64,000 nucleotides of DNA from the IMG/VR virus record IMGVR_UViG_2974602345_000001, positions 13,332 through 77,331 of that record; one strand, given 5' to 3'. Made by a program: the position numbers and the translations under genes. A model generated the notes under the pieces. That model made no database searches, was not told where the DNA came from, and worked only from the letters and a program-made list of their open reading frames with translations. The stretch's first letter is position 1. Every line of letters begins with the position of its first letter. This DNA is from a virus (taxonomy: Duplodnaviria; Heunggongvirae; Uroviricota; Caudoviricetes). Positions 14,032-53,423 of the stretch are shown in pieces.

Positions 14032-14496
14032 TTACAAGCACAACCCTTCACCACGAAGGTTACTGCGGATGCGCATGAGAATCTCACCCAACTTGTTCTT
14101 GCCAACCAGGTTACCATTGGCGTCACGCACCATACCCCAGTACTTATCGCCCCAGTAGTTCAGTTCGACAAGCTTGCGGTTGCCTGTAGCAAGCAACAGC
14201 TTCTTCAGGTCTTCGTTCTGCTCGAACTTAGCCAGAACGATTTGGTACATGAAATCGTCCTTCAAGTGCTCCCAGTTGAAGCGGACAGGAACCTTCCGAC
14301 CAAGGCGCTTGGCTTCACCTGGCGTTTCCAGTGCAGCAAACTCAACCCACACATCTTGGCCATCAACCTTCATGGCCTGGTAGGCGTGTTCCGAAGTTGG
14401 CCAGTTGATACCTTTGTACACCAACGGCGCTTCGAAGAAGTTGCTGAGGAAAGCAAACTCCTGGAAGAAGCCGAGGATGTCATCATTTGGTGCCAT
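14032..14496 (-). CDS. NADAR (YbiA/T4 gp30.3-like) ADP-ribosylhydrolase family protein
   Basis: FLSNFF...WPTSEHAYQAMK...AKRLGRKV...AKFEQN..L...LLATG...D.YWG...GKNKLGEILMRIR. Confidence 0.9.
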   Translation of the reverse strand: MAPNDDILGFFQEFAFLSNFFEAPLVYKGINWPTSEHAYQAMKVDGQDVWVEFAALETPGEAKRLGRKVPVRFNWEHLKDDFMYQIVLAKFEQNEDLKKLLLATGNRKLVELNYWGDKYWGMVRDANGNLVGKNKLGEILMRIRSNLRGEGLCL

Positions 14497-14770: not shown

Positions 14771-15112
14771 TTATGGGCGGATAATGTACAAGCTGATATC
14801 CGACCCAGTGGTGACAAGCGTTTCGTTGCCACGCTTGACCATGTCGATCATGCAGTTCTTGAGCTCCAGCGAACCTGGCCATGGGCACTCAAAGGTGTTC
14901 TCCCAAGCAGCCTTGATGCGTTCCATCCGTTGTGCATGATCCGCTTTGATCAGCTCCATTGTCTCGTAGACGCTGGTGGCATCACCGACGAAGTCTGTGG
15001 AAGATACGTCAGCGTTGAAAGTCATTTCCGAATAGTAGATCTTCACTTGGTGTGTCCTGTGTACGTTGTCTATGCGGCGTATTGTAGAGCGGTACGCCGC
15101 CGATGTAAACAC
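14771..15112 (-). CDS. hypothetical protein
   Basis: 113 aa ORF in the tRNA region; start uncertain. Confidence 0.5.
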   Translation of the reverse strand: MFTSAAYRSTIRRIDNVHRTHQVKIYYSEMTFNADVSSTDFVGDATSVYETMELIKADHAQRMERIKAAWENTFECPWPGSLELKNCMIDMVKRGNETLVTTGSDISLYIIRP

Positions 15113-34613: not shown

Positions 34614-35099
34614 TCAGCCTGTGAACTCAACGTAGGTAATGTCTTTGAAGCCGATGGACTCGATGATCGCACGGATGCGGGTCCAGTCGCCGCCACCCAG
34701 GCCAGCACCGATCTTCGGAATGCCGATCTTGGGCTGAACATCGAAGTCGATGAACATCAGGTTCAGCTGGTACAGGCCACGTGCAAGGCCGTCATAATCG
34801 ACGTTGTTGCCCGGCTGGCCGATAGTGGCCTGCGTGTACAGGTTCACGCCCATGACGGTGTAGAAGTCAGGGTTACCAGTCTGGCTGACGAAGCCCGTGT
34901 CTGCGAGGGTGAAGGTGCCCAGCTTGCGGATGTCGCCCGCAACGGTCATGCAGTCAACTTCAACCATAGACGGAATACGGCGACGGATCTCGCCAGCAAT
35001 ACCCGAGCCCATGGTGTTGTGGATGTTGGCGCCGTGGATGATAATGTCGAACTCGCCACGTTCGGCCATGTCGATCAGGTTACCTTGAACAGTTTTCAT
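34614..35099 (-). CDS. macrodomain ADP-ribose hydrolase (T4 tk.4-like)
   Basis: VQGNLID, IIHGAN.HNTMGSGIAGEI, NLYTQ, PKIGAGLGGGDW. Confidence 0.9.
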   Translation of the reverse strand: MKTVQGNLIDMAERGEFDIIIHGANIHNTMGSGIAGEIRRRIPSMVEVDCMTVAGDIRKLGTFTLADTGFVSQTGNPDFYTVMGVNLYTQATIGQPGNNVDYDGLARGLYQLNLMFIDFDVQPKIGIPKIGAGLGGGDWTRIRAIIESIGFKDITYVEFTG

Positions 35100-36921: not shown

Positions 36922-37002
36922 TGTGGTTCTCAGTGGTTGGAGGAGCTACACAGTATATACCACAGCCAACAAAAAGGGCTAGTCTCCTAGCCCTTGATGG
37001 TG

Positions 37003-40000
37003 TTACGCCTTGCCGTTGAGGTAGTCCAGGAACTGCCCAATCTTCTCACGATCGTACATCATCGACTTGGTTGAGCGCACACAGAACACGCCGCCAGGTC
37101 CGTTGGTAGCAATTTGGACAGTAGGACCAGAGCCCGACCAGTCAAGTTTGACATGCTTACCAAACTTGGAGGCATCGAAGTCTTCAAAGTCGACAGCCTT
37201 AGTCTTCGACACTGGGATAGTACCATCCATGAAGATGAACACTACCGCGTTCTTCATTTTGCCTCCTGGACCCGCCTCATTGATGAAGTTTGTGAAGTGT
37301 TTGATCCCCACTATTGATGTACTTTCGTTGATACCATGTTTGGACTTTAACGCACTCATCTGGGCTTTGTCAATAAGCTCACACTCGTACGCCTTGTAGA
37401 TCCGAGTCTGCTCGTTGGCGTTGAACACAGCCCACTCAGGGCTAATCACGCGGGTTGTGCTGTATCCAGTGCCTGGCCCTGCAGCTTTGAAGTCACGAGC
37501 GTACTTACCAAGAGACACTTCCATCTCAAAGATGTAGCCTTTGACACCAGTACCTCGACTGTAACCGCCGTCCGACATGTACTGGCTTACCTTGTCCAGC
37601 ACGTTCGAGAAGTAGATACCGTCGCCGAGCATCCGACCCACTACTGACGAGTCGTTGGCGTTGATGACCTTGAACCCGTAGCGCAGAATCATCGACGCGG
37701 CGATGCTACCCGTACCATGGAACATTGGGCGCATGATTTGTGGATCAGTCCCTTCAGCGTTCATCTTAGCTACCCAGTCAGCAAAGCCCTTTTCTTGAAC
37801 TGGGATGTTCACGCTGAACGAACGCAGCATCTTCACAGCGATGTTACCATGCTTGTACCGGTTGAAGGCGTCATACTCGATAGTCATCTCCTCAAGCTCT
37901 TGCTCAGTCTTGACGTCTTCGGTCACTGCCAGTTTGTTGATCGGATCAGTAATGACATTTTTAGCCATCAACTCAGTCAATGTGGTGTTATCACGCACCT
38001 GGCTTACTCGAGGGACCTTGATGTCGTTGTACTTCAGGATCTGGTTGATTCGCTCAGGTGTAAGGTCTACCAGTGGCTTGATAGGGATGTTGTCGCCTAC
38101 AAGCTCAGCCTTGGTGCTGTTCATGAAGTTCTTGGAATGAACAGCTTTGGCGACCAGGCGACGCTCTTCGATTGGCATGCTACCGAACATGGACTCACCT
38201 ACAGCGTTGTCCTTGGTCCACAGTTCAACTACAGCAGTCGAAACAGCTTGCTCGTCAACTGCACGAACCGATGGAGCCTGTGAACGATCGTACGAGTTCA
38301 GCTTGATCGCCAACCGCTTTACTGTATCAATGCTCAGCTTGTCCCACAGGTTATTGACGTTGAGTCCTTGGACCAAACCAAAGCCGTTAGGGAACTTGGC
38401 ATACGTGTCCATTGCTCTGCCCAGCACCTTGTTGAGTGTATCAGCGTCGAGTAACTTGATAAACCGAGCAGTCTCGTCAAACACCATGTTCACTACAAGT
38501 TCAGGGTTTGCTTCTGCATAGTCGTTCACAGCATCAGCGCCCAGCACTTCAGCAACCTTGTCAGCATATCCTTGGCTGATAAGTTTCACAAGACGACCCT
38601 TCACTGCATCTTGATCGATGGTAGGCGACCCATTGTACACTTTGACAAACATGTCCTGGCGACGTGACAGATGATCAGGGATGCTAGGGATCAGGCCCAG
38701 CAGGTCAACCACAGTTTTACCCGCCGCAAGGTATCCTTCAGCCATGTTGGGCGCTCGAAGGGCCAGGGTTTTGAAGTTGGTGCTATCAAGCAAGTTTGCA
38801 TTGACAAGTTTTGCAATCTGCGTTTCAGTAAGCACAGGTCCGAACATAGAAGCAAAGACGTATGCGTTGAACACCTCCCAGTTACTTGTGCCTGGTTTGA
38901 ACGTGCCGATTACCTTGTCAACGTAGGCGTCAACATCCATCTTGCCAATAGAGATGAACGACACAGCCGTTTGATCAACTATCATTGCCGGGGCTGTGAT
39001 GAACTTGTTGTAGAATACATCAGGACGTTTTGAGAAATACGCTATGGTCCCAAGGGCTCGGTTTGATGAAGCGTCGTATCGAATGAAGCCAAACAGGGCG
39101 TTGACGTTGACGTCGCTCAGTGACTGGTCAGCAGGCAGGTTGCCAATGCGCTTAGCATACGCGCCAATCACAGCGTCGTTGAAGTTGTACATCGTTCCGA
39201 TAGCAATTTGGCCATCAAACGCAGACAAGAGAGTCTTGTTGATGAAGTCCATCGGAGCAGTGGCCACGAACTCTTCAACCAGGCGGGTCAGCTCTTTCTG
39301 ATCAATGGTTCGATAGTTGGCAGCACCGGTTGAGTTGAACGTCTTGATGTCACCCGCCATGAAGAGCTTGAGCATAGTCGTCTCAATGCCTTCACCGGTG
39401 CCGAACGACACACTAGTCTTGTTGACGTACTTCTTGACCAGGGCGTCAATCAGTTGCTGAGACTGATCAAACCAATCGTCATACTTGGTAAAGATCAGCG
39501 ATCCATTTTGGGTAACAGACGCATCCGACACCACATAGCCATCAATGTCCTGTGCAAGTACAGTACCGTCAACCAAGCCAGCATAATAGCCAGTGACCAT
39601 CAGCTTGGCGATGTTAGGGTTGCTGTAGCCGTTGGTCCGATCTGTGATGAATGGGACGAAACTGCCTTTGACTACCAGGTCCTCACTGATAGCCTCCTGA
39701 ACTGTTCCGTAGGCTTGGGTCAGGGCAACTTCAAAGTCACCCGGCTTGGCATCAAGCAGAAGACTAGCAGCAGCCGCGTTGATGCGCGACGACATGGTTT
39801 CAAACAACTTGCTGATAGAGCCCCCAGTCTTGACGTTACCTGACTGTGCCTTCAACGTGATAACTTCACCGCTGATCTTCGACATCTCCTCACCGAGGTC
39901 TTCAACAGCAGTCTTCGAGTTGGTGACATACACCACGATGTACGCATAAGCGACAGGGTCATACCGCTTCAGGTAGAAGCCCATACCTTCGCGCCATTGG

Positions 40001-40941
40001 TCGAGGTTAACCTTGTCGAACAGTGCGTCAAGTGACTTACCAACGTACAGCTCGTTGAACAGAGTGTCGAAGTGCTGCTGCATGTACTGGCGGTGCACAC
40101 GCACATCACGGAGGATGCTTGCGAAGTCATCGCGGCCCTTGGCATAGTGCAGGCGAGCGAACAGATCGTCGTTAAACGCAGTCGGGTTGTTCATTGGGTC
40201 AGGCAGGTTGTCTGCAGGTGCTGCTTGGGTGGCTGGCGGTGTCAAGCCAGCATTTGGGTCAGCCGCGACGCTCACAGGAGTCACCTGACCTGCAACAGCC
40301 GGCTGAACTTCGTGGCCTTCGAGCTTCGACAGCTTGACGTGGGTCGGGTTGCCAACGAACTTGGCTTCGTCAAACTCAGGACCACCCCAGTATGGGTAGA
40401 TAGTCTGTGGGTTGACATACAGCAGCTCAATGGAACCGTTGGTGCCCTCTTCGTTGACCCCGTACAGGCTCAGGTGAAGTTTGCGGTTCGACTTGAACGC
40501 CCGCGCAGTGGCACGCACGAACAGCGTGGCGTAAGGCTTGAGCGATGCCTGGAGGATGATAGCGTAAGACGAAGCCAGCGGGCCGTCTTTGCTGTCCTTG
40601 TACTCGGTGTAGCACTGCATGAAGGTAACCAGGACCTTCTTGAACGTGCCTGAGTCAACAGTGATGTTCTGGGCGAAGTTCTTGGTCTTGCGGCGCATGA
40701 ACGCCAGAACGCGGGTGTTCTTGCCGTACTTGCGTTGGCCCGAGCCTTGGATCAGGTTTGCTTTGTAGACACGGAAGGCAAACTCAGTACCATGGTCGTC
40801 AGTAAAGACAGCCTGGAACGTGATAGCAGGGTCGGCAGGATACTCGCCTGGAGCAGATACGGTGAATGGGTAGCCTTTGGCTGAGCCCATATTGAAGAGC
40901 TCTGTCAAGAGCTCTTCGCTGATAATCTCGAGGTCTTCCAT
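37003..40941 (-). CDS. large late protein with C-terminal PARP-like (H-Y-E) ADP-ribosyltransferase domain
   Basis: MFHGT, GRMLGDGIYFS, KVSQY, IFEMEVSLG, SPEWAVF; ACTAAATA promoter at 40980-40987. Confidence 0.8.
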   Translation of the reverse strand: MEDLEIISEELLTELFNMGSAKGYPFTVSAPGEYPADPAITFQAVFTDDHGTEFAFRVYKANLIQGSGQRKYGKNTRVLAFMRRKTKNFAQNITVDSGTFKKVLVTFMQCYTEYKDSKDGPLASSYAIILQASLKPYATLFVRATARAFKSNRKLHLSLYGVNEEGTNGSIELLYVNPQTIYPYWGGPEFDEAKFVGNPTHVKLSKLEGHEVQPAVAGQVTPVSVAADPNAGLTPPATQAAPADNLPDPMNNPTAFNDDLFARLHYAKGRDDFASILRDVRVHRQYMQQHFDTLFNELYVGKSLDALFDKVNLDQWREGMGFYLKRYDPVAYAYIVVYVTNSKTAVEDLGEEMSKISGEVITLKAQSGNVKTGGSISKLFETMSSRINAAAASLLLDAKPGDFEVALTQAYGTVQEAISEDLVVKGSFVPFITDRTNGYSNPNIAKLMVTGYYAGLVDGTVLAQDIDGYVVSDASVTQNGSLIFTKYDDWFDQSQQLIDALVKKYVNKTSVSFGTGEGIETTMLKLFMAGDIKTFNSTGAANYRTIDQKELTRLVEEFVATAPMDFINKTLLSAFDGQIAIGTMYNFNDAVIGAYAKRIGNLPADQSLSDVNVNALFGFIRYDASSNRALGTIAYFSKRPDVFYNKFITAPAMIVDQTAVSFISIGKMDVDAYVDKVIGTFKPGTSNWEVFNAYVFASMFGPVLTETQIAKLVNANLLDSTNFKTLALRAPNMAEGYLAAGKTVVDLLGLIPSIPDHLSRRQDMFVKVYNGSPTIDQDAVKGRLVKLISQGYADKVAEVLGADAVNDYAEANPELVVNMVFDETARFIKLLDADTLNKVLGRAMDTYAKFPNGFGLVQGLNVNNLWDKLSIDTVKRLAIKLNSYDRSQAPSVRAVDEQAVSTAVVELWTKDNAVGESMFGSMPIEERRLVAKAVHSKNFMNSTKAELVGDNIPIKPLVDLTPERINQILKYNDIKVPRVSQVRDNTTLTELMAKNVITDPINKLAVTEDVKTEQELEEMTIEYDAFNRYKHGNIAVKMLRSFSVNIPVQEKGFADWVAKMNAEGTDPQIMRPMFHGTGSIAASMILRYGFKVINANDSSVVGRMLGDGIYFSNVLDKVSQYMSDGGYSRGTGVKGYIFEMEVSLGKYARDFKAAGPGTGYSTTRVISPEWAVFNANEQTRIYKAYECELIDKAQMSALKSKHGINESTSIVGIKHFTNFINEAGPGGKMKNAVVFIFMDGTIPVSKTKAVDFEDFDASKFGKHVKLDWSGSGPTVQIATNGPGGVFCVRSTKSMMYDREKIGQFLDYLNGKA

Positions 40942-40979
40942 CGTTTGGAGTCCTAGCAAAAGGGATCATTGGATCCCTT

Positions 40980-40987
40980 TATTTAGT
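40980..40987 (-). promoter_or_regulatory. late promoter ACTAAATA plus 5' hairpin
   Basis: Octamer followed by AAGGGATC-CAAT-GATCCCTT. Confidence 0.65.
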
Positions 40988-51926: not shown

Positions 51927-51934
51927 TATTTATA
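51927..51934 (-). promoter_or_regulatory. late promoter TATAAATA (T4 consensus)
   Basis: Exact T4 late consensus upstream of gp23. Confidence 0.85.
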
Positions 51935-52790: not shown

Positions 52791-53423
52791 TTACGAGCGC
52801 TTGATCGATTTGATGTATGCTTCGAGACGTTCCAGGAACAATTGTTCATTGATCCCTTCAGCTTCGACGTCATTCCCTGGCACCCACATACCTTCCTTGT
52901 TCTTTACCCATGCAGACTCAAACAGCGGTTTGACATAGGCGTTTGGCGCGGATGGGTTGTCGACCGCATCGACCGCAGTAAGCATGAAGTCGCTCTGGAC
53001 GTACTTCATACCGTTGCTTTCACGCAGTGATCCCAGACCACGGGTAGACACACCCATGTTGAAACCACCCTCGAGCAAGCCTGCAACGATTTGACCTTTG
53101 GGTGTCGGTAGGACCAAAGCCTTACCAATCACGTCGTTACCTTTCCACTCGAGAGACTCGATCAGGATTGCGGCGTGTTCAGGGTCAGCGAACGGGCGGT
53201 CAGGGTGGTTGAGTTCACCCAGAGCCCGACGTCGGCTGACGAAGTTGTCTTGATAGGCCTGTACGGCGGATTCCATGATACCTTTGGAGTACCAACGCCC
53301 GTTGCCGTTTTTGACTTCGGCTTGGGCGAAGATCCCCTCGATATACAGCTTCTTACCACCGCCCTCAGTAGCCTCGTGGAGGACTTCAACCTCCTGGCTT
53401 GATTCGATGAGCAGTTTGGCCAT
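52791..53423 (-). CDS. 21: prohead protease gp21
   Basis: LYIEGIFAQAE.KNGNGR.Y, ALGELNHP, GVSTRGLGS, DAVDNPSAP. Confidence 0.96.
   Translation of the reverse strand: MAKLLIESSQEVEVLHEATEGGGKKLYIEGIFAQAEVKNGNGRWYSKGIMESAVQAYQDNFVSRRRALGELNHPDRPFADPEHAAILIESLEWKGNDVIGKALVLPTPKGQIVAGLLEGGFNMGVSTRGLGSLRESNGMKYVQSDFMLTAVDAVDNPSAPNAYVKPLFESAWVKNKEGMWVPGNDVEAEGINEQLFLERLEAYIKSIKRS

Follow-up and report, generated by a model that had tools for sequence, protein, structure and literature searches.

The window, a stretch of 64,000 nucleotides (nt) that corresponds to bases 13332–77331 of a T4-like phage genome of 158,136 bp, carries on its minus strand a gene for a protein of 1312 amino acids (aa; P0001), whose C-terminal part contains a PARP-type ADP-ribosyltransferase (ART) domain. 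The initial annotation, made from the sequence alone, had placed a protein of ~1310 aa in the interval 37003–40987 and left its strand unstated; the interval is right, and the strand is minus. A single open reading frame spans it, 37003–40959 if counted from an upstream TTG, and 37003–40941 if counted from the ATG at 40941–40939, with the stop codon at 37003–37005. We assign the start to the ATG at 40941 on sequence grounds, because it is preceded by AGGA at 40954–40951 and the aligned Met is the start in all homologs.

The host genome of the gene could be recognized as well. Two sigma-70 promoter sequences (30-mers) printed in the paper on Pseudomonas putida phage pf16 (PMC5587285) lie exactly where published, at 14925 and 16392, and the protein matches in BFVD an entry of Pseudomonas phage pf16, "PARP catalytic domain-containing protein," of 1312 aa and with 98% identity. 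Thus, judged by its sequence, the genome is that of pf16 or almost identical to it. The genome contains three perfect sites of the T4 late-promoter motif TATAAATA, which agree with those of the pf16 paper (PMC5587285). The coding sequence and its catalytic part comprise the following features.

37003–40941, minus strand: coding sequence of the 1312-aa protein, of the same length as the homolog P0002 and the pf16 protein A0A1S5R3W8.
40951–40954, minus strand: Shine–Dalgarno-like AGGA, 9 nt before the ATG; CTAGGAC is kept in the homologous locus L005, and CTAGGAG is enriched upstream of genes.
37363–37938, minus strand: PARP-type ART core, residues 1002–1193, with H1075, Y1110, K1117, Y1121, and E1169, assigned by Pfam, alignment, model, and structure matches.
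37006–37269, minus strand: conserved β-rich C-terminal domain following the ART, residues ~1225–1312 (~90 residues), seen in the alignment of 65 sequences and in the model.

Four catalytic motifs had been quoted for the region ~37400–37870, and all of them are found there, spanning nt 37435–37719: FHGT provides H1075 (nt 37717–37719), GRMLGDGIYFS provides Y1110 (nt 37612–37614), KVSQY provides K1117 and Y1121, and PEWAVF provides E1169 (nt 37435–37437). The Pfam family PARP (PF00644) matches residues 1031–1146 with 28.7 bits against the gathering cut-off of 26.7 in the protein scan, and with 32.6 bits in the six-frame search of the genome; most homologs carry a precomputed PF00644 annotation. 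In the alignment of 65 C-terminal modules, with identity down to 27%, positions H1075, G1076, Y1110, K1117, Y1121, and E1169 are invariant. Given the Pfam score above the cut-off and the invariant H/Y/Y/E in 65 sequences, the motif match is beyond chance. The β-rich domain after the ART is found in almost all of the 65 homologs, and its F, D, G, and P positions are nearly invariant.

Structural data agree with this assignment. The AlphaFold model of residues 900–1312 has a mean predicted local distance difference test score (pLDDT) of 83.6, and the 50 best Foldseek matches of this C-terminal model in the PDB are exclusively catalytic domains of PARP1, PARP2, and PARP3 (E ~1e-10). VIA comparisons with PARP1, PARP2, tankyrases 1 and 2, and PARP10 yield Z of 14.9–15.4 and a root-mean-square deviation (rmsd) of 3.3–4.4 Å over 168–190 residues; the alignments span model residues ~103–294, that is, residues 1002–1193 of the protein. 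The structural alignment to PARP1 is restricted to the ART part (model residues 50–294), and in the Pfam scan (E ≤ 1) PARP is the only match, with no WGR, PARP_reg/helical regulatory, zinc-finger, or ankyrin module found. There is also no Pfam or PHROG match in the protein to MuF (Phage_Mu_F) or another known head-anchoring domain. The initial annotation had proposed the PARP-type H-Y-E fold as opposed to the R-S-E fold of the T4 enzymes, and had named a fold unlike that of ARTs as its refutation. The domain turns out to have the fold of PARP and tankyrase ARTs, and PF03496, the R-S-E family, matches neither the protein nor any other part of the genome.

A catalytically dead, purely structural internal head protein with a PARP-like fold would be one alternative to an enzyme. 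The protein is indeed very large and mostly non-catalytic. Moreover, in the phmmer alignment of residues 1071–1145 with PARP1, in which H862, Y896, K903, and Y907 correspond to H1075, Y1110, K1117, and Y1121, respectively, the nicotinamide-contact residue S904 is replaced by V1118, and the contacts with NAD+ are therefore not fully canonical. Yet the six invariant positions, together with the ART block being the best conserved part of the protein, make up the pattern expected for an active enzyme, and we regard a dead or purely structural protein as very improbable.

The remainder of the protein, covering residues 1–900, is divided as follows.

40900–40941, minus strand: residues 1–14, acidic helical N-terminal peptide ending in LTE, a candidate propeptide/capsid-targeting sequence (conservation; model helix at residues 2–15).
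40297–40941, minus strand: N-domain, residues 1–215, α/β, also present in Alt/VIP2-type ART proteins (profile search; model pLDDT ~90).
40201–40296, minus strand: disordered A/P/T/V-rich linker of varying length, residues 216–247 (pLDDT <50 at 217–247).
39892–40200, minus strand: second conserved helical domain, residues 248–350 (DPMNNPTAF ... AKGRD ... HR ... GMGFYLKRYD), the best conserved N-terminal block.
38242–39891, minus strand: fast-evolving all-α solenoid-like middle, residues 351–900 (column identity 0.22–0.42; confident model).

BLAST against 79 database relatives separates three modules, residues 1 to ~346, ~350–900, and ~900–1311. The first is common to 17 full-length homologs and to a second group (P0020–25, P0032) with a different middle; the second is variable; the third is common to all relatives and to large proteins of cultured myophages. 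Accordingly, column identity to the query is 0.6–0.8 in the N-terminal module, 0.22–0.42 in the middle, and 0.65–0.86 in the C-terminal module. In the model of residues 1–900 (mean pLDDT 87), the helix at residues 2–15 is followed by an α/β domain up to residue ~206, and everything from residue 258 to 900 is α-helical. Foldseek matches of this model in the PDB are generic α-solenoids of the HEAT/ARM type (E ~1e-3, TM score <0.3), so that the middle region of the model can be called solenoid-like only weakly.

No PHROGs or Pfam family covers residues 1–350 or 340–900. Megablast of the gene against cultured phages other than the pf16-like ones gives no match, and neither does tblastn against cultured phages with residues 1–350 or with the N-domain of the homolog P0083, even at E ≤ 1. 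A lead to DUF6934 from a feature search of the ESM Atlas (score 0.76, below the useful level) was dropped, because PF22028 has no match in the genome. Separately, part of the 1–900 model is matched in BFVD by proteins of the myophages Vibrio VP-1, Erwinia phiEa2809, Dickeya RC-2014, Shigella MK-13, and Aeromonas phiA8-29 (147–1282 aa, E = 1e-5 to 1e-4, ~230–260 aligned columns); the region matched in these proteins may have the N-domain fold.

A profile of residues 1–360, searched against 1.84 billion representatives, retrieves 30 protein clusters. Beyond the PARP-type group, the first ~215 residues head metagenomic proteins of 700–2175 aa, and 16 of 21 such further proteins carry PF03496 (ADPrib_exo_Tox, the R-S-E Alt/VIP2 family), while one carries PARP. 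These Alt-type domains can be matched directly to the T4 enzyme: the ART of P0083 matches that of T4 Alt with BLASTP E = 5e-9 and 30% identity over 174 residues, and in twelve N-domain members the ART matches T4 Alt at 1e-4 to 1e-8. Two loci of the Alt-type proteins could be located, those of P0083 and P0093, and in both the gene occupies exactly the slot of the PARP-type gene, between gp47/gp46 (SbcD/SbcC-like), which precede it, and the Rv2179c-like exonuclease, which follows. In Ralstonia phage RSP15, the two kinds occur as tandem paralogous genes, each annotated as hypothetical: ORF127 (1373 aa; locus L002, 3124–7245) combines the N-domain with PARP, and ORF128 (1047 aa; locus L014, 65–3208) combines it with PF03496. 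In the genome of the window, the N-domain occurs once, and a genome-wide profile search finds no PF03496 ART.

In the maximum-likelihood tree of 29 N-domains (200 bootstraps), the two types of catalytic domain, or warhead, are interleaved. No label was given to P0099 and P0100, which lack a detected ART, or to P0088 and P0095, which are short; P0102 and P0103 form long branches. Each of the 200 bootstrap trees requires three label changes, and the well-supported branches taken alone force at least two warhead changes; the Alt-type P0083 is the sister of the pf16-like PARP clade. From the interleaved tree, the shared slot, and the RSP15 tandem, we infer that, behind a single N-terminal module, an Alt-type warhead has been replaced repeatedly by a PARP-type one. 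The Alt-like character suggested for the protein at the outset is thereby supported, since related phages encode, at this same locus, Alt/VIP2-type ARTs that share its N-domain.

The start of the N-domain bears a candidate processing site. The Glu at the position of E14 is invariant in all 29 N-domains, and Leu or Ile precedes it by two residues (position P3) in 28 of them (LTE, INE, LNE, LAE, LKE, ILE, etc.), with the site lying 6–21 residues from the N-terminus. Short N-terminal propeptides of this kind are described for T4, where the propeptide of Alt, given as seven residues, is removed by gp21, and internal proteins have propeptides of 10–19 residues that serve as capsid-targeting sequences (PMC9026906). 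T4 Alt itself begins with MELITE, followed by LFDED. An L-x-E start is also seen in the PARP-type proteins of Stenotrophomonas phage Marzo (MLLLE before N) and Aeromonas phage phiAS5 (FLTE before N), despite their other N-terminal regions. The enzyme presumed to act on the site is encoded in the window.

52791–53423, minus strand: T4 gp21-type prohead protease (Peptidase_S77, 165 bits), with the N-terminus MAKLLIE.

The LTE/INE-type motif suggested for the protein at the outset is present and conserved, an S77 protease is encoded, and this protease may cut after E14. Conserved internal sites that would free the warhead were sought and ruled out: among the 17 full-length homologs, the only other conserved [LI]xE ends at E1139, which is buried in a core β-strand of the ART. 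As a side observation, the MAKLLIE start of the protease is a candidate self-cleavage site, like LIE-9 discussed for T4 gp21.

The upstream and downstream flanks of the gene contain the following transcription signals.

40980–40986, minus strand: late-promoter-like box CTAAATA, a variant of T4 TATAAATA, 39 nt before the ATG (genome-wide motif, kept before homologs).
40959–40980, minus strand: 9-bp hairpin (AAAGGGATC / GATCCCTTT) whose first base is the final A of the box, with a short T run behind it (−20.6 kcal/mol, z −4.0).
36974–36995, minus strand: intrinsic-terminator-like hairpin with a T run, directly 3′ of the stop codon.

The relaxed box [ACT]TAAATA has 29 sites in the genome, 22 of them in intergenic sequence, which makes up ~8% of the total; the sites point in the same direction as the gene that follows, mostly at 30–55 nt from its start. 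It precedes the genes of the major capsid protein (as TATAAATA), portal, scaffold, tail sheath, and the tailspike array. The spacing of CTAAATA before our gene is that of the capsid, portal, and sheath genes, and before the scaffold gene the box lies only 3 nt from the called ATG. A box of this type is also found before homologs, as summarized below.

L005: box TATAAATA; hairpin at the same position with different stem letters.
L006: box CTAAATAG, after a terminator.
Marzo: box GATAAATA, after a terminator.
RSP15: box CTAAATAG, before a hairpin.
L008 (Alt-type): box CTAAATA, overlapping a hairpin.
L009 (Alt-type): box CTAAATA; no neighboring hairpin noted.

Thus, a box like that of a late promoter, which had been suggested for the gene, is recognizable both here and in front of its relatives. 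Since hairpins flank the gene on both sides and a late-type box precedes it, we read the gene as an insulated late-only unit, in which the 40959–40980 hairpin is likely a terminator for upstream transcription. An arrangement with the box running into a terminator-like hairpin recurs at 40959–40986 of the window, 4950–4985 of L005, and 5953–5990 of L008, with different stem letters and the pairing kept. In these three loci, a late transcript that started a few bases past the box would have its 5′ end within the left hairpin arm and thus evade the terminator of upstream read-through; such a device may stop early and middle read-through and yet pass late transcripts.

The box has a bearing on the genome as a whole. 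Only three late promoters, the perfect TATAAATA sites, have been recognized in the pf16 paper (PMC5587285). The relaxed box marks ~20 gene starts at constant spacing (in the window, e.g., at 51933, 52761, 55552, 57796/57806, 40986, 30825, 62015, and 5321), and the late regulon is thus much larger than these three promoters.

Taken together, these data suggest that the protein is probably a head-delivered ART effector, a functional analog of T4 Alt with a PARP-type H-Y-E warhead in place of the R-S-E one. It would be transcribed late, with a CTAAATA promoter of its own and as an insulated unit of one gene, the timing being suggested by the motif and the terminators, and the N-terminal peptide and/or the N-domain would carry it into the prohead core. 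The S77 prohead protease would then cut at the invariant L/I-x-E, after E14, and the resulting protein of ~145 kDa would remain in the head and, by analogy with Alt, enter the next cell with the DNA. There, in the first minutes of infection, the ART domain could spend NAD+ to ADP-ribosylate host macromolecules, as its fold and catalytic residues imply, with the fast-evolving helical middle possibly holding or selecting the target.

Several observations weigh against delivery in the head. The neighbors of the gene are replication and nucleotide-metabolism genes, and the head genes are ~10 kb away. The late-type box also precedes non-structural genes, those of GTP cyclohydrolase and a homing endonuclease. 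[LI]xE occurs in the first 25 residues of 48 of 234 predicted proteins of the phage, and the processing argument therefore rests on the conservation of the motif, not on its presence. The N-domain has no clear link to the N-terminal region of T4 Alt itself: hhalign with that region aligns only the N-terminal 11 residues (E = 0.051, with the wider alignment), the N-domain profile has no match in the whole genomes of T4, Marzo, and phiAS5, and the only match by structure to an annotated Alt is a weak one in BFVD, to that of phiAS5 (E = 4.8e-3, rmsd 27 Å). A 32-residue hhalign match obtained with the first alignment was judged spurious; as the hhalign matches are either spurious or limited to 11 residues, we do not claim homology to the N-terminal region of T4 Alt. 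Finally, the pf16 paper (PMC5587285) mentions neither the gene, nor ADP-ribosylation, nor mass spectrometry, and the literature searched contained no usable virion proteome for pf16 or for the phages bearing homologs (Stenotrophomonas, Ochrobactrum, RSP15).

The same observations could be explained by a late ART that stays unpackaged in the cytoplasm and, within the cell that makes it, acts on proteins or nucleic acids of the host or the phage, e.g., holding the cell productive or marking components of the progeny, with the N-domain as a substrate-binding or localization module. Such an enzyme would fit a gene position next to replication and nucleotide-metabolism genes and away from head genes, a box shared with enzymes that are surely not packaged, and the lack of proteomic evidence for packaging in the literature searched; an N-domain attached to two ART types equally fits a common target. 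However, a cytoplasmic enzyme would have no evident use for the invariant L/I-x-E at 6–21 residues from the N-terminus of all 29 members, the partners of the N-domain are Alt-type ARTs, whose T4 prototype is packaged and injected, and strict late-only insulation fits a virion component. We therefore consider a purely cytoplasmic role unlikely, and retain head delivery as the favored interpretation.

Genes that could remove or handle ADP-ribose bear on the question of the substrate. Two of them are present in the window.

34614–35099, minus strand: macrodomain protein, a possible ADP-ribose hydrolase, 2 kb downstream of the gene (Pfam Macro, 23.4 bits against 22).
14032–14496, minus strand: NADAR protein (107.6 bits against the cut-off of 35.1).

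The initial annotation had combined these two genes with the ART into a circuit of one writer and two erasers. The co-occurrence is confirmed; the tie to the PARP type is not, as a macrodomain is also found with an Alt-type gene. A gene of 161–164 aa stands at the same downstream position in all loci examined, and the macrodomain of the Alt-type locus L008 (12375–12866) is 51% identical to that of the window, so that the macrodomain is tied to the locus and not to the PARP warhead. No microbial PARG, sought as a sign of poly-ADP-ribose metabolism, was found in the genome. On a related note, in Marzo (locus L003, 10758–13340) the PARP-type gene lies ~3 kb from NAD+ salvage genes annotated as NatV-like and nicotinate ribosyltransferase, as is also seen in Stenotrophomonas phage Ps15, which hints that phages like Marzo replenish the NAD+ they spend.

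Proteins might not be the substrate at all. A delivered or late enzyme could ADP-ribosylate nucleic acids, at the ends or on the bases of DNA or RNA, or have NAD+ hydrolysis as its main activity, and thereby blunt, e.g., NAD+-dependent or ADP-ribose-signaling host defenses. Enzymes that modify nucleic acids or consume NAD+ are indeed found in the H-Y-E clade (Iyer et al., 2022, PMC9503650), and the phage keeps both the macrodomain and NADAR, a domain predicted to act on macromolecules conjugated with ADP-ribose, e.g., DarT-type adducts, and to set the ADP-ribose free (PMC9503650). Nevertheless, the closest folds are the protein-modifying PARP1, tankyrases, and PARP10, not DarT or Tpt1/KptA, and replacement by Alt-type protein ARTs, or coexistence with them, at the same locus suggests an equivalent use. 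A non-protein substrate hence seems quite improbable, and mono-ADP-ribosylation of proteins by the delivered enzyme is the default expectation.

A catalytic Glu is needed for chain elongation, and alone it is insufficient. The Glu is retained in our protein, which leaves elongation possible, and it has been suggested that some phage PARP-type ARTs might make poly-ADP-ribose (PMC9503650). The boldest version of head delivery, in which a true poly-ADP-ribose polymerase or nucleic-acid ART is injected and acts in the first minutes, and the group swaps freely between Alt-type and PARP-type chemistry, is rather unlikely; if it were true, the N-domain would be a general tag, provided by nature, for delivering cargo through T4-like heads.

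The textbook example of a head-carried enzyme that reprograms the host at once is T4 Alt, and here a carrier of the Alt kind appears to hold a warhead of the other great ART clade. Warheads exchanged at one locus, or both kept, point to a modular delivery system, in which the ~215-residue module and the 14-residue peptide form a defined candidate packaging tag; the system would also offer a bacterial setting for studying PARP-type chemistry. Because the genome matches that of a cultured phage, P. putida pf16, each of the proposed steps is open to direct bench testing.

The PARP family has been reported among the commonest viral ARTs, and packaging into the head has been argued, as a general matter, to be frequent for phage ARTs, given MuF fusions, head-gene neighborhoods, and T4-Alt-like context (Iyer, Burroughs, and Aravind, 2022, PMC9503650). 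Alt-like delivered ARTs are already known; what appears to be new is the N-terminal module, the conserved protease site, and the Alt/PARP warhead exchange, no description of which was found in the literature searched, as was the case for a characterized PARP-type ART of a phage.

Cellular PARPs (human PARP1–3, tankyrases, and PARP10; those of Herpetosiphon and Clostridioides difficile) share with our protein the ART fold, the H-Y-E triad, and the second Tyr, with K903 and E988 of PARP1 corresponding to K1117 and E1169. They differ in the Ser904 position of PARP1, which is Val here, and in that our protein has a delivery-type N-terminus and is encoded by a late gene of a phage. Bacterial DNA-dependent PARPs, composed of WGR, PARP_reg, and PARP, differ by the two former domains, which Pfam does not match here.

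Among cultured myophages, relatives are encoded by Stenotrophomonas phages Marzo (gp073), Moby, and Ps15 (ORF165), Ralstonia phage RSP15 (ORF127), Aeromonas phages Aeh1 and phiAS5, and Xanthomonas phages X1 and BUDD; phrog_18612 belongs with these proteins. Several of them are annotated as "ADP-ribosyltransferase" or "PARP catalytic domain protein," and no work beyond annotation was found in the literature searched. These proteins are of similar size (1180–1370 aa) and homologous over the C-terminal ~400 residues, with 31–46% identity by tblastn. Marzo further resembles our locus in the terminator and GATAAATA box upstream and the exonuclease gene downstream, and RSP15 ORF127 shares the N-domain, whereas the Marzo and phiAS5 proteins have other N-terminal and middle regions, not matched by the N-domain profile.

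T4 Alt and our protein are both large late proteins, here by the motif, with a C-terminal ART; both have a gp21-type site after a short N-terminal peptide (MELITE before LF in T4, ELLTE before LF here); neither gene lies within the head gene cluster; and proteins with an Alt-homologous ART (E = 5e-9) have the N-domain and the locus of our protein. The warheads differ, R-S-E (PF03496) in Alt and H-Y-E of the PARP type here, as does the length, 682 aa in Alt and twice as much, 1312 aa, here; the N-terminal region of Alt has no detectable sequence homology to ours, and packaging is proven for Alt and proposed here by analogy. Similarly, the L/I-x-E peptides of the T4 internal proteins IPI–III, of 10–19 residues, target them to the prohead core and are removed by gp21 (PMC9026906), and the peptide of our protein has 14 residues and ends in LTE. 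It has no sequence similarity to the capsid-targeting sequence of IPIII; here, a whole domain of ~215 residues is conserved behind the peptide, so that targeting may be determined by the domain instead of the peptide.

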